From positions 1-10,984 of IMG/VR virus record IMGVR_UViG_2778261151_000017: a DNA stretch of 10,984 bases; one strand, given 5' to 3'. How positions within the stretch are numbered: the stretch's first letter is position 1; each line of letters begins with the position of its first letter. Below are positions 1-10,984 of this stretch, one piece after another. This DNA comes from a virus. Its lineage: Duplodnaviria > Heunggongvirae > Uroviricota > Caudoviricetes. A program made the position numbers and the translations under genes. Under the pieces are notes generated by a model that searched no databases, had not been told where the DNA came from, and saw only the letters and a program-made list of their open reading frames with translations.

Positions 1-648
1 ATGGCAGCGACGCACACACTCCCTCTGGCGTCACCGGGCATGGCACGCATCTGCCTTTACGGGGATTTACAACGATTTGGCCGCCGCATCGACCTTCGAG
101 TGAAAACGGGGTCTGAAGCCATCCGGGCGCTGGCCATGCAGATCCCGGCGTTTCGTCAGAAACTGAGCGACGGCTGGTACCAGGTACGCATTGCCGGGCG
201 TGATGCAGGTGAAACCGAATTGTCTGCCCGTCTTAATGAGCCGCTGGCAAATGGTGCCGTGATCCACATCGTGCCGCGTCTGGCGGGAGCTAAAAGTGGC
301 GGTGTGTTTCAGGTGGTGCTGGGGGCGGCGCTGATTGCGGTGGCATGGTGGAACCCTGTGGGCTGGCTGGGTGCCGCGGCTGTATCGGGCATGTATGCGG
401 CAGGGGCCAGTATGATCCTGGGCGGAGTGGCGCAGATGCTGGCACCGAAAGCCAGGACGCCCACGGCAGCAAGTACAGATAACGGCAAACAGAACACCTA
501 TTTCTCCTCACTGGATAACATGGTTGCCCAGGGCAATGTTCTGCCGGTTCTGTACGGTGAAATGCGCGTGGGGTCACGCGTGGTTTCTCAGGAAATCAGC
601 ACGGCAGACGAAGGGGATGGTGGGCAGGTTGTGGTGATTGGTCGCTGA
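1..648 (+). CDS. I: Tail tip assembly protein I (lambda gpI-like), 215 aa
   Basis: ORF of 215 aa starting with ATG at position 1. The N-terminus (MAATHTLPLASPGMARICLYGDLQRFGRRIDLRVKTG...) and C-terminus (...KQNTYFSSLDNMVAQGNVLPVLYGEMRVGSRVVSQEISTADEGDGGQVVVIGR) match my recollection of lambda gpI; the middle is Gly/Ala-rich and hydrophobic. It lies immediately upstream of J, as in lambda. The identification is from memory. Confidence 0.88.
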   Translation: MAATHTLPLASPGMARICLYGDLQRFGRRIDLRVKTGSEAIRALAMQIPAFRQKLSDGWYQVRIAGRDAGETELSARLNEPLANGAVIHIVPRLAGAKSGGVFQVVLGAALIAVAWWNPVGWLGAAAVSGMYAAGASMILGGVAQMLAPKARTPTAASTDNGKQNTYFSSLDNMVAQGNVLPVLYGEMRVGSRVVSQEISTADEGDGGQVVVIGR

Positions 649-666
649 TGCAAAATGTTTTATGTG

Positions 667-687
667 AAACCGCCTCCGGGCGGTTTT
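667..687 (+). other. GC-rich hairpin in the I-J intergenic spacer (possible attenuator or RNA stability element)
   Basis: aaaccgcc (667-674), loop tccg, ggcggttt (679-686) form an 8-bp stem, followed by a T-rich stretch (tttt a tcg ttt). It sits between the I stop (646-648) and the J ribosome-binding site GGAG (697-700). Confidence 0.3.
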
Positions 688-708
688 ATCGTTTATGGAG
701 CATGACGA

Positions 709-3700
709 ATGGGTAAAGGCAGCAGTAAGGGGCATACCCCGCGCGAAGCGAAGGACAACCTGAAGTCCACGCAGTTGCTGAGTGTGATCGATGCCATCAG
801 CGAAGGGCCGGTTGAAGGTCCGGTGGATGGATTAAAAAGCGTGCTGCTGAACAGTACGCCGGTGCTGGACACTGAGGGGAATACCAACATCTCCGGTGTC
901 ACGGTGGTGTTCCGTGCCGGTGAGCAGGAGCAGACACCGCCGGAGGGGTTTGAATCCTCCGGCTCCGAGACGGTGCTGGGTACGGAAGTGAAATATGACA
1001 CGCCGATCACCCGCACCATTACGTCTGCAAACATCGACCGTCTGCGCTTTACCTTCGGTGTGCAGGCACTGGTGGAAACCACCTCAAAGGGGGACCGGAA
1101 TCCATCGGAAGTCCGCCTGCTGGTTCAGATACAACGTAACGGTGGCTGGGTGACGGAAAAGGACATCACCATTAAGGGCAAAACCACCTCGCAGTATCTG
1201 GCCTCGGTGGTGGTGGATAACCTGCCGCCGCGCCCGTTCAGTATCCGGATGCGCAGAATGACGCCGGACAGCACCACAGACCAGTTGCAGAACAAAACGC
1301 TCTGGTCGTCATACACCGAAATTATCGATGTGAAACAGGGCTACCCGAACACGGCACTGGTCGGCGTACAGGTGGATTCGGAGCAGTTCGGCAGCCAGCA
1401 GGTGAGCCGTAATTATCATCTTCGCGGGCGCATTCTGCAGGTGCCGTCGAACTATAACCCGCAGACGCGACAATACAGCGGTATCTGGGACGGAACGTTA
1501 AAACCAGCATACAGCAACAACATGGCCTGGTGTCTGTGGGATATGCTGACCCACCCGCGCTACGGCATGGGAAAACGTCTTGGTGCGGCGGATGTGGACA
1601 AATGGGCGCTGTATGTCATCGGCCAGTACTGCGACCAGTCAGTGCCGGACGGCTTTGGCGGCACGGAGCCGCGCATCACCTGTAATGCGTACCTGACCAC
1701 ACAGCGCAAGGCGTGGGATGTGCTCAGTGATTTCTGCTCGGCGATGCGCTGTATGCCGGTATGGAACGGGCAGACGCTGACGTTCGTGCAGGACCGACCG
1801 TCGGATAAGGTGTGGGCCTATAACCGCAGTAATGTGGTGATGCCGGATGATGGTGCGCCGTTCCGCTACAGTTTCAGCGCCCTGAAAGACCGCCATAATG
1901 CCGTTGAGGTGAACTGGATTGACCCGGATAACGGCTGGGAGACGGCGACAGAGCTTGTTGAAGATACGCAGGCCATTGCCCGTTACGGTCGTAACGTCAC
2001 GAAGATGGATGCCTTTGGCTGTACCAGCCGGGGGCAGGCGCACCGCGCCGGGCTGTGGCTGATTAAAACGGAACTGCTGGAAACGCAGACCGTGGACTTC
2101 AGCGTGGGTGCGGAAGGGCTTCGCCATGTACCGGGGGATGTCATTGAAATCTGCGATGATGACTATGCGGGTATCAGCACCGGCGGGCGCGTGCTGGCGG
2201 TGAACAGCCAGACCCGGACGCTGACGCTCGACCGTGAAATCACGCTGCCATCCTCCGGTACCACGCTGATAAGCCTGGTTGACGGTCAGGGTAATCCGGT
2301 CAGCGTGGAGGTCCAGTCCGTCACCGACGGCGTGAAGGTGAAAGTGAGCCGTGTTCCTGACGGCGTTGCAGAATACAGCGTGTGGGGGCTGAAGCTGCCG
2401 ACGCTGCGCCAGCGCCTGTTCCGCTGCGTGAGTATCCGTGAGAACGACGACGGCACGTATGCCATCACCGCCGTGCAGCATGTACCGGAAAAAGAGGCCA
2501 TCGTGGATAACGGGGCGCACTTTGACGGCGACCAGAGCGGCACGGTAAATGGTGTCACGCCGCCAGCGGTGCAGCACCTGACTGCCGAAGTCACCGCAGA
2601 CAGCGGGGAATATCAGGTGCTGGCGCGCTGGGACACGCCGAAGGTGGTGAAGGGCGTGAGTTTCCTGCTTCGCCTGACCGTGGCAGCGGATGACGGCAGT
2701 GAGCGGCTGGTCAGCACGGCCCGGACGGCGGAAACCACATACCGCTTCACGCAACTGGCGCTGGGGAACTACAGGCTGACAGTCCGGGCGGTAAATGCGT
2801 GGGGACAGCAGGGCGATCCGGCATCGGTATCGTTCCGGATTGCCGCACCGGCAGCGCCGTCTCGGATTGAGCTGACGCCGGGCTATTTTCAGATAACCGC
2901 CACGCCGCATCTTGCGGTTTATGATCCGACGGTACAGTTTGAGTTCTGGTTCTCGGAAAAGCGGATTGCGGATATCAGGCAGGTTGAAACCACAGCCCGC
3001 TATCTTGGTACGGCGCTGTACTGGATAGCCGCCAGTATCAATATCAAACCGGGCCATGATTATTACTTTTATATCCGCAGTGTGAACACCGTTGGCAAAT
3101 CGGTATTCGTGGAGGCTGTTGGTCAGCCGAGTGATGATGCATCCGGCTATCTGGATTTTTTCAAAGGCGAGATAGGGAAAACCCATCTGGCTCAGGAGCT
3201 GTGGACGCAGATTGATAACGGTCAGCTTGCGCCTGACCTGGCTGAAATCAGGACGTCCATTACGGATGTCAGCAATGAAATCACACAGACCGTCAATAAG
3301 AAACTGGAAGACCAGAGTGCAGCGATCCAGCAGATACAGAAGGTTCAGGTTGATACAAATAATAACCTGAACAGCATGTGGGCAGTGAAGCTGCAGCAGA
3401 TGCAGGACGGACGCCTTTATATTGCGGGTATCGGTGCCGGTATTGAGAACACCCCTGACGGCATGCAGAGTCAGGTGCTGCTGGCGGCGGACAGGATTGC
3501 GATGATTAATCCTGCAAATGGCAACACAAAACCGATGTTTGTTGGTCAGGGTGATCAGATATTCATGAATGACGTGTTCCTGAAACGCCTGACGGCTCCC
3601 ACCATTACCAGCGGTGGAAATCCGCCGGCATTTTCCCTGACACCGGACGGAAAGCTGACCGCTAAAAATGCGGATATCAGTGGCAGTGTGAATGCGAACG

Positions 3701-4206
3701 CCGGGACGCTCAACAATGTCACGGTAAATGAAAACTGTACGATTAAGGGCATGCTGGAGGCGACTCAGGTCAGAGGTGACTTCGTTAAAGCTGTATCCAA
3801 ATCATTCCCGAAACAGGCTGGTACGTGGGGTAATACGGAAACACCAAACGGGACGGTTACAGTCACCATCAGCGATGATCATAACTTTGACCGTCAAATC
3901 ATTATTCCGCCCATTATCTTTAACGGAATAGCGTATAGCGATCCGGGAAGTGGTAATAACCCGGGAGGTACAAGATACACGGGTTATGGTTTTGAAGTTC
4001 GCAAAAACGGCGTATTAATCGCATCCAGAGAAACTAAAGGGGCCATTCCCGGTAGTTACAGTGCAGTTATTGATATGCCGAGTGGCAGGGGAAGCGTCAC
4101 TCTGGAGTTTAAGATTTTCCAGAAAGGCAATCAGGGGGCAGGCAATATCACCGACTGTACGGTGATTGTGACCAAAAAAGCCGCTTCCGGCATCAGTATT
4201 CGTTGA
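709..4206 (+). CDS. J: Tail tip host-specificity protein / central tail fibre J (lambda gpJ-like), 1165 aa
   Basis: ORF of 1165 aa with GGAG 8 nt upstream of the ATG. The N-terminal and central sequence ([34 protein letters not shown]..., [37 protein letters not shown]...) matches my recollection of lambda J. The size is close to lambda J (about 1130 aa) and it follows I. The C-terminal part (after about nt 3200) is the region I am least able to match from memory. Confidence 0.92.
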
Positions 4207-4224
4207 AATATTTATAACCCCAAT

Positions 4225-4252
4225 AAAGGGCGTCAGGAATGACGCCTTTTTT
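4225..4252 (+). terminator. Rho-independent terminator-like hairpin downstream of J
   Basis: Stem ggcgtca (4229-4235), loop ggaa, tgacgcc (4240-4246), extendable by A:U pairs, followed by tttttt (4247-4252). It starts 19 nt after the J stop codon. Confidence 0.6.
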
Positions 4253-4276
4253 ATTGCAGAAAAGCGAGAGGTAATT

Positions 4277-4876
4277 ATGCGTAAAGTTTGTGCAGCAATT
4301 TTGTCCGCAGCCATTTGTCTGGCCGTATCCGGTGCGCCTGCATGGGCGTCTGAACATCAGTCCACGCTGAGCGCGGGGTATCTTCATGCCTCGACGAACG
4401 TCCCCGGCAGTGATGATCTGAACGGGATTAACGTGAAATACCGTTATGAGTTTACGGACACACTGGGGCTGGTGACGTCATTCAGCTATGCAGGAGACAA
4501 GAATCGCCAGCTGACCCGTTACAGCGATACCCGCTGGCATGAAGATTCCGTTCGTAACCGCTGGTTCAGCGTAATGGCGGGGCCGTCTGTGCGCGTGAAT
4601 GAATGGTTCAGCGCGTATGCGATGGCGGGTGTGGCTTACAGCCGTGTGTCGACTTTCTCCGGGGATTATCTTCGCGTAACTGACAACAAGGGGAAAAAGC
4701 ACGATGTGCTGACCGGAAGTGATGACGGTCGCCACAGCAACACGTCTCTGGCGTGGGGGGCTGGCGTGCAGTTTAACCCGACCGAATCCGTGGCCATTGA
4801 TATTGCTTATGAAGGCTCCGGCAGTGGTGACTGGCGCACTGACGGTTTCATCGTGGGTGTCGGTTATAAATTCTGA
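4277..4876 (+). CDS. lom: Lom outer-membrane protein (Ail/Lom family beta-barrel), 199 aa
   Basis: ORF of 199 aa with ribosome-binding site GAGAGG (4266-4271) 5 nt before the ATG. The N-terminus is signal-peptide-like (MRKVCAAILSAAICLAVSGAPAWA) and the protein ends in an aromatic residue (...GVGYKF), typical of outer-membrane beta-barrels. Sequence and position (between J and stf) match lambda lom as I recall it. Confidence 0.9.
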   Translation: MRKVCAAILSAAICLAVSGAPAWASEHQSTLSAGYLHASTNVPGSDDLNGINVKYRYEFTDTLGLVTSFSYAGDKNRQLTRYSDTRWHEDSVRNRWFSVMAGPSVRVNEWFSAYAMAGVAYSRVSTFSGDYLRVTDNKGKKHDVLTGSDDGRHSNTSLAWGAGVQFNPTESVAIDIAYEGSGSGDWRTDGFIVGVGYKF

Positions 4877-4902
4877 TTAGCCAGGTAACACAGTGTTATG
4901 AC

Positions 4903-4929
4903 AGCCCGCCGGTTCAGGCGGGCTTTTTT
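4903..4929 (+). terminator. Rho-independent terminator-like hairpin downstream of lom
   Basis: Stem agcccgcc (4903-4910), loop ggttca, ggcgggct (4917-4924) is a perfect 8-bp GC-rich stem followed by ttttt (4925-4929). It lies 27 nt after the lom stop and just before the stf start. Confidence 0.6.
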
Positions 4930-4940
4930 GTGGGGTGAAT

Positions 4941-7900
4941 ATGGCAGTAAAGATTTCAGGTGTACTGAAAGACGGCACAGGAAAACCGGTACAGAACTGC
5001 ACAATCCAGCTGAAAGCAAAACGTAACAGCACCACGGTGGTGGTGAACACGCTGGCCTCAGAAAATCCGGATGAAGCCGGGCGTTACAGCATGGACGTTG
5101 AGTACGGGCAGTACAGCGTTATTCTGTTGGTGGAAGGCTTCCCGCCGTCACATGCCGGGACCATCGCCGTGTATGAAGATTCCCGACCCGGTACGCTGAA
5201 TGATTTTCTCGGTGCCATGACGGAGGATGATGCCCGTCCTGAGGCACTGCGCCGTTTTGAACTGATGGTGGAAGAGGTGGCGCGTAACGCGTCCGCGGTG
5301 GCACAGAACACGGCAGCCGCGAAGAAGTCAGCCAGCGATGCCGGCACATCAGCCCGTGAGGCGGCAACCCATGCGACTGATGCTGCAGGCTCAGCACGCG
5401 CAGCCAGCACGTCAGCCGGACAGGCCGCTTCGTCGGCTCAGTCAGCGTCTTCCAGCGCAGGAACGGCATCAACAAAGGCCACTGAAGCGGAAAAAAGTGC
5501 TGCCGCTGCAGAGTCCTCAAAAAGCGCGGCGGTCACCAGTGCCGCTGCGGCGAAAACGTCAGAAACGAATGCGGCAGCGTCACAACAATCAGCAGCCACT
5601 TCTGCATCCGCCGCGACCACGAAGGCGTCAGAAGCAGCCACCTCAGCCCGGGATGCGGCGGCCTCAAAAGAGGCAGCGAAATCATCAGAAACGAACGCAT
5701 CATCAAGCGCCAGTAGTGCCGCTTCCTCGGCAACGGCGGCAGGAAATTCCGCGAAGGCGGCAAAAACGTCCGAGACGAACGCCAGGTCTTCTGAAACGGC
5801 AGCGGGACAGAGTGCCTCAGCTGCGGCAGGCTCAAAAACAGCGGCTGCATCATCTGCCAGTGCCGCATCAACAAGTGCCGGGCAGGCCTCAGCCAGTGCC
5901 ACCGCTGCCGGAAAGTCGGCAGAAAGTGCCGCATCGTCTGCTTCAACAGCCACAACGAAGGCTGGCGAAGCCACTGAACAGGCCAGCGCAGCAGCGAGGT
6001 CAGCTTCCGCAGCGAAGACATCCGAAACGAACGCGAAAGCGTCGGAAACCCGTGCAGAATCCTCAAAAACGGCTGCCGCATCGTCAGCCAGTTCGGCGGC
6101 GTCATCGGCATCATCGGCGTCTGCTTCAAAAGATGAGGCGACCATACAGGCGTCAGCAGCGAAGGGCAGCGCCACGACGGCATCCACGAAGGCGACAGAG
6201 GCTGCTGGTAGTGCGACGGCAGCAGCTCAGAGCAAAAGTACGGCGGAATCTGCAGCAACGCGCGCTGAGACAGCGGCAAAACGGGCAGAGGATATTGCAT
6301 CCGCCGTGGCGCTTGAGGATGCGAGCACGACGAAAAAGGGGATAGTACAGCTCAGTAGTGCGACTAACAGCACGTCTGAAACGCTGGCGGCAACGCCAAA
6401 GGCAGTAAAATCAGCCTATGACAATGCAGAGAAACGTCTGCAGAAAGACCAGAACGGCGCTGATATACCCGATAAGGGACGCTTCCTGAACAACATTAAC
6501 GCGGTCAGTAAAACAGACTTTGCTGATAAGCGTGGTATGCGTTATGTGCGGGTTAACGCTCCTGCAGGTGCAACATCTGGAAAATATTACCCTGTTGTTG
6601 TTATGCGTTCTGCTGGCTCAGTAAGCGAACTGGCATCAAGGGTCATTATCACCACGGCAACGCGAACCGCAGGCGATCCGATGAATAACTGCGAGTTTAA
6701 CGGATTTGTTATGCCTGGTGGCTGGACTGACAGGGGGCGTTATGCTTATGGAATGTTCTGGCAATATCAAAACAATGAACGAGCCATCCACTCAATAATG
6801 ATGAGTAATAAGGGCGATGATTTGCGCTCTGTGTTCTATGTTGATGGCGCTGCTTTCCCTGTTTTTGCGTTTATCGAAGATGGCCTGTCAATATCCGCAC
6901 CTGGTGCTGATCTCGTTGTTAATGATACGACCTATAAGTTTGGGGCAACAAATCCGGCGACTGAATGTATCGCGGCGGACGTTATCCTTGATTTTAAGAG
7001 TGGGCGTGGTTTTTATGAGTCTCATTCGTTAATCGTTAACGATAACTTGTCGTGCAAAAAACTTTTTGCCACAGACGAAATTGTAGCGCGTGGTGGTAAT
7101 CAGATTCGAATGATAGGTGGGGAGTATGGGGCATTATGGCGTAATGATGGCGCTAAAACTTACCTGCTGCTTACCAATCAAGGTGATGTTTATGGTGGCT
7201 GGAATACATTAAGACCGTTTGCTATTGATAACGCAACCGGCGAACTGGTTATTGGAACCAAACTGTCCGCAAGTCTGAACGGTAATGCATTAACAGCAAC
7301 AAAGCTGCAAACGCCAAGACGGGTTTCTGGTGTTGAGTTTGATGGTTCCAAAGATATTACTTTAACCGCCGCGCATGTGGCTGCTTTTGCCAGAAGGGCA
7401 ACGGATACATATGCCGATGCGGATGGTGGCGTTCCCTGGAATGCCGAATCAGGCGCTTATAATGTCACCCGCTCTGGCGACAGCTATATTCTGGTTAACT
7501 TCTATACCGGAGTCGGAAGTTGCCGGACCTTGCAGATGAAGGCGCATTACAGAAATGGTGGTCTGTTCTACCGTTCTTCAAGAGACGGTTATGGTTTTGA
7601 GGAAGACTGGGCAGAAGTTTATACCTCGAAAAATCTTCCACCAGAAAGCTACCCAGTCGGCGCACCAATCCCGTGGCCATCAGATACCGTTCCGTCTGGT
7701 TATGCCCTGATGCAGGGGCAGACTTTTGACAAATCTGCCTACCCGAAACTTGCAGCCGCTTATCCGTCAGGCGTGATCCCTGATATGCGTGGCTGGACGA
7801 TTAAGGGCAAGCCCGCCAGTGGTCGTGCCGTATTGTCTCAGGAACAGGACGGCATAAAATCGCATACCCACAGCGCCAGCGCATCCAGTACTGATTTGGG

Positions 7901-8342
7901 GACGAAAACCACATCGTCGTTTGATTACGGCACTAAATCCACGAATAACACTGGTGCGCATACCCATAGTATTAGCGGGACCGCAAATAGTGCCGGCGCG
8001 CACCAACACAAGAGTTCCGGTGCATTTGGTGGCACGAACACGAGCATTTTCCCTAATGGTTATACCGCGATTTCAAATCCAAGCGCGGGGATTATGAGCA
8101 CAACAAGCGGTAGTGGCCAGACTCGTAATGCAGGGAAGACATCATCAGATGGTGCTCATACCCACTCGCTGTCCGGCACTGCTGCAAGCGCAGGCGCACA
8201 TGCACATACTGTCGGTATTGGTGCTCATACGCACTCCGTTGCGATTGGCTCACATGGACACACCATCACCGTTAACGCTGCGGGTAACGCGGAAAACACC
8301 GTCAAAAACATCGCATTTAACTATATTGTGAGGCTTGCATAA
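4941..8342 (+). CDS. stf: Side tail fibre protein Stf (lambda Stf-like), intact, about 1133 aa
   Basis: One continuous ORF. The N-terminus [26 protein letters not shown] and the C-terminus ...[11 protein letters not shown] match lambda Stf as I recall it. It contains a long Ala/Ser/Thr-rich segment with repeated K(T/S)SETNA motifs, the tail-fibre motif [43 protein letters not shown], and C-terminal His-x-His repeats (GAHTHS, GAHAHT, GSHGHT). I place the start at ATG 4941; the ORF track starts at an in-frame GTG at 4935, which is less likely. Confidence 0.88.
5283..6336 (+). repeat. Low-complexity Ala/Ser/Thr-rich coding repeat region inside stf
   Basis: About 350 codons are dominated by GCN, TCN and ACN codons. 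At least four imperfect copies of a roughly 24-nt unit encoding AAK(T/S)SETNA occur near 5553-5575, 5677-5699, 5763-5785 and 6013-6035. This region generates long spurious ORFs in the other frames. Confidence 0.65.
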
Positions 8343-8926
8343 TGGCATTCAGAATGAGTGAACAAGCACGGACTATAAAAATTTATAATCTGCTGGCCGG
8401 AACTAATGAATTTATTGGTGAAGGTGACGCATATATTCCGCCTCATACAGGTCTGCCAGCAAACAGTACCGATATTGCACCACCAGATATTCCGGCAGGC
8501 TTCGTGGCTGTTTTCAACAGTGATGAGGCATCGTGGCATCTCGTTGAAGACCATCGGGGTAAAACGGTTTATGACGTGGCTTCCGGCGACGCGTTATTTA
8601 TTTCTGAACTTGGCTCGTTACCGGAAAATGTCACCTGGTTATCGCCGGAAGGGGAATATCAGAAGTGGAACGGCACAGCCTGGGTGAAGGATCCGGAAGC
8701 AGAAAAACTGTTCCGGATCCGGGAGGCGGAAGAAACAAAAAACAGCCTGATGCAGGTAGCCAGTGAGCATATAGCGCCACTTCAGGATGCTGTAGATCTG
8801 GAGATCGCAACGGAGGAAGAAACCTCATTGCTGGAAGCCTGGAAAAAATATCGGGTGTTGCTGAACCGTGTTAATACAACAACTGCACCTGATATTGAGT
8901 GGCCGGAAGAACCAGACACAATGTAA
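8342..8926 (+). CDS. tfa: Tail fibre assembly protein / chaperone Tfa (lambda Tfa-like), 194 aa
   Basis: ORF of 194 aa beginning [44 protein letters not shown]..., matching my recollection of lambda Tfa. Its ATG overlaps the stf stop by 1 nt (TAATG at 8340-8344), and GAGG (8330-8333) lies 8 nt upstream. Confidence 0.9.
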
Positions 8927-8940
8927 GCGAAAAAGAAAAA

Positions 8941-8973
8941 CCGCAGACACGACGTATGCAGGACGTGCTGCGG
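8941..8973. terminator. Candidate bidirectional terminator hairpin between convergent tfa (+) and the 252-aa gene (-)
   Basis: ccgcag(a)cacg (8941-8951), loop of about 12 nt, cgtgctgcgg (8964-8973) form a roughly 10-bp stem with one bulge. It is followed by ttt on the + strand and preceded by aaaagaaaaa (8931-8940), which reads TTTTTCTTTT on the - strand, so the - strand direction looks the more canonical. Confidence 0.4.
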
Positions 8974-9092
8974 TTTGGCTAGTAAACTTTTGATAGTGCG
9001 AGTATTGAATGATTTCCAGCCCATTACTCATTTTACGCTTTTCACGCGCAAGAGAAATTGAACTTTATTCCTCTGTCACCACATGACGGGGA

Positions 9093-9851
9093 TTAACATT
9101 CTGGATTTTTTATTTCTAAATCAGATAAAGCATTAATTCTTATTTTTTCTAAGGCTTTATCCATGGCCCCCTTGATTCTGTATCCATAATCATCCGGTTC
9201 TTCATATTCCTGTGGGGACGGATTTGTACCAATATTCTCAATTAATTCATTTAAAATAACTGTTACTTCTTTATTAAGAAGAACTGCTTTAGTTAACATC
9301 ATCTCTGTTAATGCTGTGAAGGCTAGGCTAAGTTTCTGTTGTAGCTCTTTATTTTTTAATTTAAGATCTTCATCGTTTAGTGCTTTATCACGGTCTTCGT
9401 GAGCCTGTTGTACTTCATCCCAAAACAGCTTTTCTTGTTCTTGATTAAAATATCCTTGATAACTATTGGCTACATATGTTGGCATCATGTGAATCTCAAT
9501 AATTTCAAATTCATTATCAGCCCATTTTTTTATACTAAGTAACTGAGTGTAAATGTACTCATACATATCGTACTTTTTTTGCCAGATTTGTTGAGAAATC
9601 CACAACTCAGAAGTAATCTTTTTTTCTATATCTTTGATAGTTGTTGTATTTAATGCTAACTGCTTTCTGAGTATTTCATAGTTAGCGTTGGTAGCAGAAA
9701 TTTTTGCTTTTTCAGTTATAAAAGAAACAATAAAGTTCACTATGAGAGCTGCAATAATAATAGCGAAGCTCAACCCTAAAATCTCTGTGGTTGAGAAATT
9801 AGATGACTGTAATGCTTTGATAAGTTCAAAAAACTGTTTTTCTGTGAGCAT
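9093..9851 (-). CDS. Hypothetical single-pass membrane protein, 252 aa, function unknown (accessory / candidate defence gene)
   Basis: An uninterrupted 252-codon ORF in DNA of about 22-40% GC, where stop codons are frequent by chance, so it is very likely real. A possible ribosome-binding site AAGG lies 4 nt before the ATG (9849-9851) on the - strand. It has one hydrophobic helix near the N-terminus (ILGLSFAIIIAALIVNFIVSFI, about residues 24-45), then a K/E/Q-rich, Trp/Tyr-containing region with coiled-coil character and an acidic C-terminal end. I see no Walker A, HEXXH, HNH or other catalytic motif. Confidence 0.78.
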   Translation of the reverse strand: MLTEKQFFELIKALQSSNFSTTEILGLSFAIIIAALIVNFIVSFITEKAKISATNANYEILRKQLALNTTTIKDIEKKITSELWISQQIWQKKYDMYEYIYTQLLSIKKWADNEFEIIEIHMMPTYVANSYQGYFNQEQEKLFWDEVQQAHEDRDKALNDEDLKLKNKELQQKLSLAFTALTEMMLTKAVLLNKEVTVILNELIENIGTNPSPQEYEEPDDYGYRIKGAMDKALEKIRINALSDLEIKNPEC

Positions 9852-9922
9852 GGTACCTTACCAAAAATTAAGACTGTTATCTATATAAAAATGTTACCCA
9901 AGAGGGATTGTAATGAAATAAC

Positions 9923-9944
9923 AAACCGGCACATTGGCCGGTTT
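9923..9944 (-). other. Intergenic hairpin between the two - strand genes (possible partial terminator, attenuator or processing site)
   Basis: aaaccggc (9923-9930), loop acattg, gccggttt (9937-9944) form an 8-bp stem. On the - strand it is followed by GTTATTTCATTA, which is T-rich but interrupted. I found no convincing sigma70 -35/-10 pair in the 97-nt spacer (9852-9948). Confidence 0.3.
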
Positions 9945-9949
9945 GAAGT

Positions 9950-10984
9950 TCAAGGGGGTGAGATTGTAGAGGCGTTACCTTGTTCTATCACACCAGACCT
10001 AATCTTATAACTACCAAGGATGTTGACCGTTTTATTATTTTTCATCGCGTCAAAAATTAAGCCTATTTCATCAGGATCATTGATAAAACTGGTATCAACA
10101 TAGATCGGGAATGAATCATCACCTGTTGGCTCATGGCAGCTTAACGTTAGCTTATCGGCTGAGCGTTTTATACTATCAATGACAACTTCCAATGTTTGCT
10201 GCTCTGACTTAGCCTTTTCAATTGGGTTCTTGATGATTTCTTGAACCTGACCTTGCGAAAGCTCAATATTGCTGGCCCCGCGGATCGTCACTTTGTCTGC
10301 ATCAGATGCACCTTTAAGAACTCCAGTGTATGCCTTAGCTGTGTGCTCTTGGATACCTTCGGCGCGCTCTATCGTATCAATACCTTCATGTGCTTTTATT
10401 GCAGACAGCATACCATCGCGTAGAATTGTCATCCGCTCGGATTCTGCTCGCTGTTTTGCTTCTTCCAGTTGTAACTCAATAGTTTTGGTTTCGACTTGTG
10501 TCTGATGATCTAAGTAGGACGTACCGACCCATGCGCCGCCTAAAACTAAGACAGCAAACAGGAAACACATTGTTTTCTGTCTTGGGCTCATACCTTGCGT
10601 TACCTTCTCAAATGCGTTACCAAAGGAATCAATAAGTTCTTTAACTGAGGTGATAATTTCTGTGCAGCCAGGATTGATAGTAAAAACCAACTCTGCAGCT
10701 TCTCGATCCTCAGCAGTGAGCTTCTGTAAGTTAGAGGTTTTGTACTTGATTAGAGTAAAAACCTTGTACATCTCAGTTTGAAATTCACAGATACCCTGTG
10801 CCAAACTTGCAGGCAGAGTACCATTATACTTATCTTCATCACCAAAAAATTTGAAATCAATACTTTCTAAGAAGTTTAACTTCAAATTTTCAATGTGGAT
10901 TTCTTCGCCTGAAATAACTCGTCCGAAAATATTTTCTATATCATCAATATCATTGATTTCATAGGCCTGAATTGCATCTTCCAT
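9950..10984 (-). CDS. Hypothetical membrane-anchored protein, 344 aa, function unknown (accessory / candidate defence gene)
   Basis: A 344-codon ORF on the - strand whose ATG is the last three bases of the window (10982-10984), so its promoter and ribosome-binding site are not visible. It has a highly acidic N-terminal region (MEDAIQAYEINDIDDIENIF...), one central hydrophobic helix (MCFLFAVLVLGGAWVGTSYL, about residues 138-157) preceded by basic residues (SPRQKT), then a charged segment with coiled-coil character (IELQLEEAKQRAESERMTILRDG...) and a C-terminal region (...GDDSFPIYVDTSFINDPDEIGLIFDAMKNNKTVNILGSYKIRSG...). I recognise no catalytic motif. Confidence 0.75.
   Translation of the reverse strand: MEDAIQAYEINDIDDIENIFGRVISGEEIHIENLKLNFLESIDFKFFGDEDKYNGTLPASLAQGICEFQTEMYKVFTLIKYKTSNLQKLTAEDREAAELVFTINPGCTEIITSVKELIDSFGNAFEKVTQGMSPRQKTMCFLFAVLVLGGAWVGTSYLDHQTQVETKTIELQLEEAKQRAESERMTILRDGMLSAIKAHEGIDTIERAEGIQEHTAKAYTGVLKGASDADKVTIRGASNIELSQGQVQEIIKNPIEKAKSEQQTLEVVIDSIKRSADKLTLSCHEPTGDDSFPIYVDTSFINDPDEIGLIFDAMKNNKTVNILGSYKIRSGVIEQGNASTISPP

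Follow-up and report, generated by a model that had tools for sequence, protein, structure and literature searches.

The window analysed here, a stretch of 10,984 nucleotides (nt) covering positions 1 to 10,984 of the caudoviral record IMGVR_UViG_2778261151_000017, ends in two minus-strand genes, which we call A and B and which lie beyond the tail-fibre genes of a lambdoid prophage. The initial annotation had taken them for one functional membrane-protein module, possibly a defence system. We find a different explanation probable: A and B are two independent single-gene cassettes, stacked head-to-tail in the cargo slot between the tail fibre assembly gene tfa and a dinI-like gene, and gene A encodes an exclusion or abortive-infection protein that is expressed in lysogens. 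We are highly confident of the domain architecture of the two products and of the mutual independence of their genes; the anti-phage role of gene A is a closer call, which we see as nearly balanced and leaning slightly towards doubt. In any case, A and B are not to be regarded as a single system.

Gene A (9950–10984, 344 amino acids (aa); UTI89_C5141/UTI89_RS24940; WP_001555707) and gene B (9093–9851, 252 aa; UTI89_C5140/UTI89_RS24935; WP_001399675) are open reading frames with ATG starts, separated by a 98-nt spacer on the same strand (9852–9949) and convergent to tfa (8342–8926, plus strand), which forms the left border of the slot and is annotated in the record of strain Ec-U11. This arrangement, as first described from the open reading frames, agrees with RefSeq, where identical coding sequences and starts are annotated in 28 complete Escherichia coli genomes, among them UTI89, NU14 and strain 1303. 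The ATG of gene A is the final codon of the window; in Ec-U11, which is 100% identical to the window across the A-B region, an AAGGA ribosome-binding site is located 7 nt 5' of this ATG, beyond the window end, and the alignment of the gene A family begins at the same methionine. Compared with the copies in Enterobacter, the ratio of nonsynonymous to synonymous substitution rates (dN/dS) is 0.049 for gene A and 0.055 for gene B, at a dS of 0.68–0.91. Given this strong purifying selection, both are real genes.

The A-B block lies at the right-hand end (attR) of a lambdoid prophage inserted next to prfC. From left to right, this end reads J, lom, stf, tfa, the two leftward genes B and A, the dinI-like gene and prfC. 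The proposal that it is horizontally acquired accessory cargo, in a slot resembling the b-region of lambda, is supported. The compositional contrast noted at the outset is real, with a GC content of 31.5% in gene B and 40.4% in gene A against 54.7% in the tail genes (1–8926), but the ranges then quoted (22–40% versus 55–63%) overstated it; 100-nt segments within the A-B block range from 27 to 53%.

The independence of the two genes is first apparent in the spacer between them. Directly 3' of the gene A stop codon lies an intrinsic-terminator-like hairpin with a run of U (9922–9945, minus strand; free energy (dG) −14.6 kcal/mol, z-score −5.3), which accompanies gene A at other loci and is the counterpart of the terminator Timm in phage mEp332. 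A second terminator-like hairpin, with UUUUUCUUUUU, is found downstream of gene B (8930–8976, minus strand; dG −20 kcal/mol, z-score −3.5). At other loci, homology to the gene A cassette stops at window positions 9909–9920, terminator included, and homology to a gene B cassette in Klebsiella starts at 9897; the junction of the two cassettes thus lies at about 9897–9916.

To this adds a census in which hidden Markov models (HMMs) of both families were compared with the six-frame open reading frames of 61 fetched loci (numbered with the prefix L), a partner being sought within 5–6 kb. The A-B pair occurs in just two types of context, the E. coli prfC type (L001, L002, L027) and an Enterobacter hormaechei type (L054–57), as against about 17 contexts with a gene A relative without B and about seven with a gene B relative without A, which is not the distribution of an obligate two-gene system or operon. 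Gene A relatives stand alone in the phages mEp332 and PhiR12, where the homologue is found between cI and Timm or a terminator, in Citrobacter, E. coli MDK9L1 and M15, Pantoea, Raoultella, GCA_001640365, phi458 and Rac-like prophages, as well as in Proteus, Yersinia ruckeri, Serratia, Xenorhabdus, a Pasteurellaceae bacterium, Pasteurella phage Pmp14 and an island near AbiE. Likewise, solitary gene B relatives are found in Klebsiella, in Aeromonas (between formate-dehydrogenase genes), in two Citrobacter arrangements, at two E. coli prophage ends and on a Pantoea megaplasmid beside a DUF262 gene.

The same picture emerges within E. coli, where complete genomes carry gene A in 33 cases, gene B in 35 and the near-identical pair in 28; the divergent alleles (five of gene A, seven of gene B) occur together in none of their 12 genomes. 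Even the nearest relatives outside the block are solitary, that of gene A (75% aa identity) after a Rac-like repressor and that of gene B (81%) in Klebsiella. With a hairpin between the genes, families that are mostly solitary and divergent alleles that never coincide, the idea of one functional module is not borne out, nor is the pair conserved as a unit across its range. A lack of co-inheritance, which had been named beforehand as evidence against that idea, is largely what the solitary contexts display; the exception is a shallow clade. There, judging by the sequences, the 2-kb block is transferred whole (E. coli prfC, E. coli SCU-306, Enterobacter smpB). Physical linkage within the cargo region explains this block, and an obligate partnership does not agree with the remaining contexts.

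For gene A, the genomic positions of its relatives are the most informative. In at least ten independent prophages, whose repressors differ, a relative follows 22–120 nt downstream of a repressor gene on the same strand, the repressor being either of the cI type (helix-turn-helix (HTH) plus S24) or a short HTH protein. This applies to mEp332, PhiR12_1-5, Citrobacter, E. coli MDK9L1 and M15, Pantoea, Raoultella, GCA_001640365, phi458 and Rac-like prophages; in two further assemblies and Citrobacter, the gene A relatives follow three different cI alleles. Beyond the gene A relative come a terminator and, after it, the pL/N region. For the mEp332 immunity region, the order given by the depositors is pRM, cI, gene A homologue and Timm, and in PhiR12_2 no terminator-like site lies between cI and the gene A homologue, while one directly follows the homologue. 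This repressor-adjacent slot is the position of rexAB in lambda, and a gene located left of cI is expected to share the cI transcript, as rexA does (PMC12315714). Other contexts of the family are a site beside Abi_2, one near AbiEi/AbiEii and the end of a Mu-like prophage by a Gin-type invertase; two members of the deep family, on contigs too short for this purpose, were left out of the reading of contexts. The genome of Pasteurellaceae bacterium Macca harbours three gene A relatives (L036–L038), of which one is disrupted; upstream of all three lies a gene for a DUF4760 membrane protein in place of a repressor.

The family itself is large. Gene A matches the HMM of phrog_6191, annotated as 'unknown function', with an E-value of 2.2e-92 (residues 4–342 on profile positions 4–332 of 338), and so do all 60 diverse relatives sampled. 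A word-indexed search recovered 48 clusters, from Enterobacterales only; an exhaustive profile search yielded 795 clusters at 50% identity with E ≤ 0.001, of which 330 at E ≤ 1e-10, and among the matches listed most members are 310–360 aa long and matched over most of their length. A search for related loci with the alignment of the close family yielded seven loci. Relatives are also found in plant-, insect- and fish-associated genera. In agreement with the first impression that neither protein can be assigned by eye to a characterized family, neither gene A nor gene B gave a significant match when searched against Pfam, NCBIfam, PADLOC and the PDB sequences. Against PADLOC-DB v2.0.0, the best E-values were 0.019–0.052, for short partial matches only; PDB profile searches with gene A gave nothing significant, and the 60 diverse relatives showed no consistent Pfam match and no recurrent PADLOC match. 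SieB and Imm (Pfam) and the superinfection-exclusion families of PHROG do not match gene A either. We find no functional study in the literature on mEp332, PhiR12 or the locus tags and accessions concerned.

An independent indication comes from DefensePredictor (Science 2026, PMC13092281), which lists WP_042199492.1 in its Table S5 as a 'Predicted novel defense gene' among 'uncharacterized clusters', with a mean log-odds score of 5.04 (the authors' stringent cut-off is 4). This protein is the cI-adjacent gene A relative of E. coli M15 (L031); the phage-borne alleles of PhiR12, which belong to the same subgroup, are 67% identical to gene A. The validation rate reported for such predictions is 45% overall and rises with the score (PMC13092281). 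A motif search of the table of validated proteins, an imperfect test, returned no relative of A or B.

The AlphaFold (AF2) model of gene A has a mean predicted local distance difference test score (pLDDT) of 81.6 and a predicted template modelling score (pTM) of 0.69. It starts with an alpha/beta domain (residues 1–133; 10586–10984, minus strand, as are all the following segments; pLDDT about 88–95), which is predicted to be cytoplasmic, shows the highest conservation of all parts in the wide family and carries the conserved motifs YNG..LAQG.CEFQ.E and NLQ.L. The probable membrane anchor is a single hydrophobic helix (residues 138–158, CFLFAVLVLGGAWVGTSYL; 10511–10573), for which the 19-residue Kyte-Doolittle maximum (KD19) is 1.82; in the model, a helix at residues 134–151 (pLDDT about 90) is followed by a disordered linker. 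A charged helical hairpin, or stalk (residues 169–225; 10310–10480), is the least conserved part, with weak, non-significant matches in the PDB sequence search to proteins that combine a transmembrane helix with a stalk, such as ATP synthase subunit b. The C-terminal beta domain (residues 231–342; 9959–10294) is predicted to be a five-stranded beta-barrel superposable on known oligonucleotide/oligosaccharide-binding (OB) domains, that is, an OB fold. In BFVD, only matches of the OB type were obtained, plus two weak full-length matches to uncharacterized phage proteins. By the positive-inside rule, gene A is probably bitopic with its N-terminus inside and its stalk and OB fold in the periplasm (net flanking charges in the close family: N +1.4, C −2.1).

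From these features, we propose the following model. In its usual home, gene A would be made in lysogens from the repressor transcript, which the immunity terminator would close. The protein would be anchored in the inner membrane with its N-terminus inside and its stalk and OB fold towards the periplasm, and it would exclude or abort superinfecting phages, most plausibly by interfering with genome entry or with the membrane machinery of that entry; an abortive-infection trigger would be the less likely route. The cassette in the window, consisting of the open reading frame and its terminator, would once have belonged to an immunity region, from which it was carried to the tail-fibre-distal slot to end up in front of the unrelated gene B cassette. 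As it is now outside the immunity region, it must use a different promoter. The block of genome entry, taken as a specific mechanism, we consider unlikely, and we offer only tentatively the broader notion that phrog_6191 represents a new, widespread form of single-protein prophage immunity in which a membrane-anchored protein, made from the repressor operon, would use a variable periplasmic stalk and OB domain to recognize and block the genome-delivery apparatus or the DNA of superinfecting phages. The hypothesis of superinfection exclusion or abortive infection, originally put forward for A and B together, is plausible for gene A, in view of the rexAB position and the relative scored by DefensePredictor, but not for a combined system.

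If the notion of a new single-protein immunity were true, about 800 sequence clusters would represent an exclusion system in the rex slot with a new mechanism, adding a membrane-anchored OB-fold protein to the known single-gene defences. Such a family would be accessible to experiment, since K-12 phages that can be cultivated have it (mEp332, PhiR12), and it has no Pfam or PADLOC model. Genes of the repressor operon and of the tail-fibre-distal slot are a proven source of phage-exclusion systems, and exclusion genes that prophages carry at the site of rexAB or in moron slots are in themselves of an already known kind.

The closest parallel is lambda RexA/RexB. Like rexAB, gene A relatives lie after cI and before Timm, presumably on the pRM transcript, and like them, gene A is predicted to provide an inner-membrane component expressed in lysogens. 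Unlike RexA/RexB, gene A is a single protein with one hydrophobic helix and an OB fold instead of a two-component system of a sensor and a polytopic membrane channel, and its copy in the window lies outside the immunity region. No Rex match was obtained in PADLOC or Pfam for gene A or gene B at E-values up to 1, nor for the 60 diverse relatives, the presence of Rex models in PADLOC v2 not being confirmed. RexB is a four-helix membrane protein and RexA is cytoplasmic. P22 SieA, SieB of the lambda family, Imm and Sp of T4 and gp15 of HK97 are inner-membrane exclusion proteins that act at or after DNA entry, and HK97 gp15 is also a moron; gene A differs from these proteins in its far greater size and its two globular domains. 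Judging from its sequence, phrog_6191 has no detectable relation to any described exclusion family, and the combination of a membrane anchor with an OB fold would be unusual for such genes. BstA, as described in PMC8585504, is likewise a single gene beside the prophage repressor in diverse Gram-negative prophages; gene A differs in its predicted membrane anchor and OB fold, and no homology between the two was detected.

Gene A homologues in the phage records PV340541 and PV340549-54 carry the label 'T2SS GspM containing protein', in reference to the type II secretion system (T2SS). We rejected this assignment: the Pfam T2SS M models match neither gene A nor its 31 close or 60 distant relatives. 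GspM is similarly bitopic, with a membrane helix followed by a soluble domain, but it differs from gene A in the C-terminal OB fold, and gene A is never found in a secretion operon, all of its contexts being prophages or islands. The name appears to have arisen as an artefact of annotation and could spread to further records.

Gene B belongs to a much smaller family of 58 clusters at 90% identity, none of them below about 47% identity to the query, which is restricted to Enterobacterales and Aeromonas and on no member of which an annotation was found. Its N-terminal transmembrane helix (residues about 21–45; 9717–9791, minus strand) is clear, with a KD19 of 2.79 at residues 24–42, within a helix spanning residues 21–113 of the AF2 model. 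Because the C-terminal flank of this anchor is the more positive one in 29 of 31 family members, we predict an N-out/C-in topology with a cytoplasmic helical bundle, the soluble part being all-helical in the model. The early view that A and B are both single-pass membrane proteins is accordingly well founded for gene B, yet only marginally so for gene A. Similarly, the charged, coiled-coil-like soluble regions ascribed to them correspond to the helical bundle of B and the helical hairpin of A, but gene A has two globular domains in addition. We see no good sigma-70 promoter match for gene B in the spacer, and in the alignment of the upstream sequences, conservation is weak and limited to about 50 nt.

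Relatives of gene B are accompanied by SRAP, UmuDC, DinI, RnlAB, HicAB, T5orf172 and DUF262, a neighbourhood typical of accessory and defence-rich cargo, yet not diagnostic. For instance, an SRAP (YedK-like) gene lies 240–315 nt downstream of gene B relatives on the same strand (L006–8, L013–14, L054). Our best guess is that gene B is an accessory or defence-type gene independent of A; a role in defence as such appears rather unlikely. On the chromosome of Aeromonas bestiarum (L010, 6001–6759), a lone relative (70% aa identity) is situated between DUF3305 and fdhD, with about 450–500 bp of non-coding DNA on each side and no prophage nearby, and therefore a gene B single-gene cassette can move alone. 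One and the same hypothetical protein of 213 aa (L028, L029; 5284–5925) is encoded convergently to the divergent gene B allele at two unrelated E. coli prophage ends; it has no Pfam match and only a weak match to PDC-S50 in PADLOC (E-value 6e-4).

The slot in which the two cassettes meet is highly variable. When the interval between tfa and dinI is compared in related prophages at prfC or yecD, it contains a pin-type recombinase with ydfK and ynaM, a 410-aa hypothetical protein without Pfam or PADLOC match (EC24), a retron type XII gene that combines a reverse transcriptase with a TIR domain (RT-TIR; WL7562, PADLOC E-value 2e-187), three NleG-type effectors of the type III secretion system (T3SS; O121 RM8352), IpaH (RMDEC332) or nothing (GABEEC132). 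The retron and the T3SS effector morons share the slot with A and B as unrelated proteins. The interval is thus a cargo hotspot that takes defence or virulence genes alike, and residence in it does not tell defence from lysogenic conversion. The prfC-dinI junction is present in 565 genomes, 28 of which have the A-B pair.

Several points weigh against the reading we prefer. The copy of gene A in the window lies between tfa and dinI and not beside cI. Its proposed anti-phage role is suggested by context and by a machine-learning prediction for a relative, WP_042199492.1, which is absent from the DefensePredictor tables of tested or validated units (S6–S8; PMC13092281). The hydrophobic helix is marginal, KD19 being below 1.6 in 20 of 60 diverse family members, and the charge bias of its flanks is weaker in the wide family; for these reasons, the anchoring and topology of gene A are uncertain. 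The OB-fold assignment stems from a predicted model, and if gene A were cytoplasmic, the OB fold could bind nucleic acid instead. As for gene B, T3SS effectors are found in the same slot and therefore its position alone implies no defence. Finally, Enterobacter hormaechei carries an A-terminator-B unit of 86% nt identity in a different prophage, adjoining smpB, and since the block and purifying selection are conserved, there may be some functional coupling of A and B in the shallow clade.

The virulence cargo of the slot raises the alternative that A and B are lysogenic-conversion factors that change the host envelope or the interaction with host cells, for example in uropathogenic strains. 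Apart from NleG and IpaH in other strains, this could be supported by the many carriers that are human urinary isolates and by a screen using differential fluorescence induction and sequencing (DFI-seq), in which fragments on UTI89_C5140 and UTI89_C5141 are among those reported to be up-regulated in bladder epithelial cells (PMC5404293). The DFI-seq list, however, covers most of this prophage as well as neighbouring chromosomal genes, and we take this as a sign of a regional effect. Moreover, gene A relatives reside in the immunity regions of phages grown on K-12 and in genera associated with plants, insects and fish, neither a secretion signal nor an effector-like domain is present, and the slot also holds a retron. 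We therefore regard this explanation as improbable.

We judge it improbable, too, that A and B form a two-component membrane system in which both proteins are needed. In its favour, both genes are on the same strand, both products are predicted to be membrane-anchored, and the block is kept in the smpB prophage of E. hormaechei and three further assemblies with a spacer of 98–103 nt, at a protein identity to the window of 93.9% for gene A and 89.3% for gene B and with both genes under purifying selection; E. coli SCU-306 carries it at about 90% identity. The terminator-like hairpin between the genes, the many contexts of either gene without its partner, the solitary gene A homologues of mEp332 and PhiR12 and the solitary nearest relatives argue against it, and gene B has SRAP downstream in more contexts than it has gene A upstream.

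Quite improbable is a role of gene A in the prophage's own cycle, be it in tuning the transition from lysogeny to lysis, as proposed for RexAB, or in membrane events at induction. The repressor operons of at least ten prophages would accommodate such a role, and RexA/RexB are reported to aid the shift to lytic growth (Thomason et al., 2021, as cited in PMC12315714). The family, however, also occurs far from repressors, be it at the ends of prophages, within Mu-like prophages or next to Abi genes in islands, and gene A of the window is itself detached from the immunity region. The toxin-partner pair considered at the outset finds no support and has a negligible probability: adjacent same-strand genes in a mobile element, with HicAB and RnlAB near gene B relatives, could suggest one, but the genes are large, lie 98 nt and a terminator apart, do not conform to a type II toxin-antitoxin system, show no homology to toxin or antitoxin families and are each stably kept alone in many genomes. 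Plasmid entry exclusion was considered and rejected, both families being essentially absent from plasmids.

The only gene of this locus that has been tested in the literature is UTI89_C5139, whose deletion in UTI89 led to 25% more adhesion and invasion (PMC5404293). It matches a 154-aa minus-strand open reading frame (L001, 14675–15139; about window 8570–9040) that starts 52 nt below the gene B stop codon, is antisense to the plus-strand genes on the tail-fibre side, overlaps the terminator region of gene B and is not part of the RefSeq annotation of this stretch. UTI89_C5139 is probably a mis-called antisense open reading frame. As it is antisense and overlaps the terminator, the phenotype is no proof of a genuine C5139 protein and cannot be ascribed to one; with the deletion, the terminator region of gene B would have been lost.

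As to how cargo enters and leaves the slot, the A-B block is bracketed by two copies of a direct repeat of about 100 bp. One copy (8938–9037) holds the gene B terminator and is 87% identical to the other (L027, 10378–10476), which lies just 3' of the dinI-like gene, past the window end, and has lost the run of U. The same sequence is scattered, unannotated, through thousands of E. coli genomes and probably serves as a recombination anchor for cargo exchange. The non-coding DNA upstream of gene A is common to other prophage ends, and together, the repeats and shared flanks look like cargo exchange by recombination between conserved flanks. Past the window end, a sequence resembling a LexA box, CTGTATACAAACACAG (L027, 10731–10790), lies ahead of the dinI-like gene, and this last gene of the prophage therefore appears to be SOS-controlled; gene A lies about 450 bp downstream of it on the same strand.

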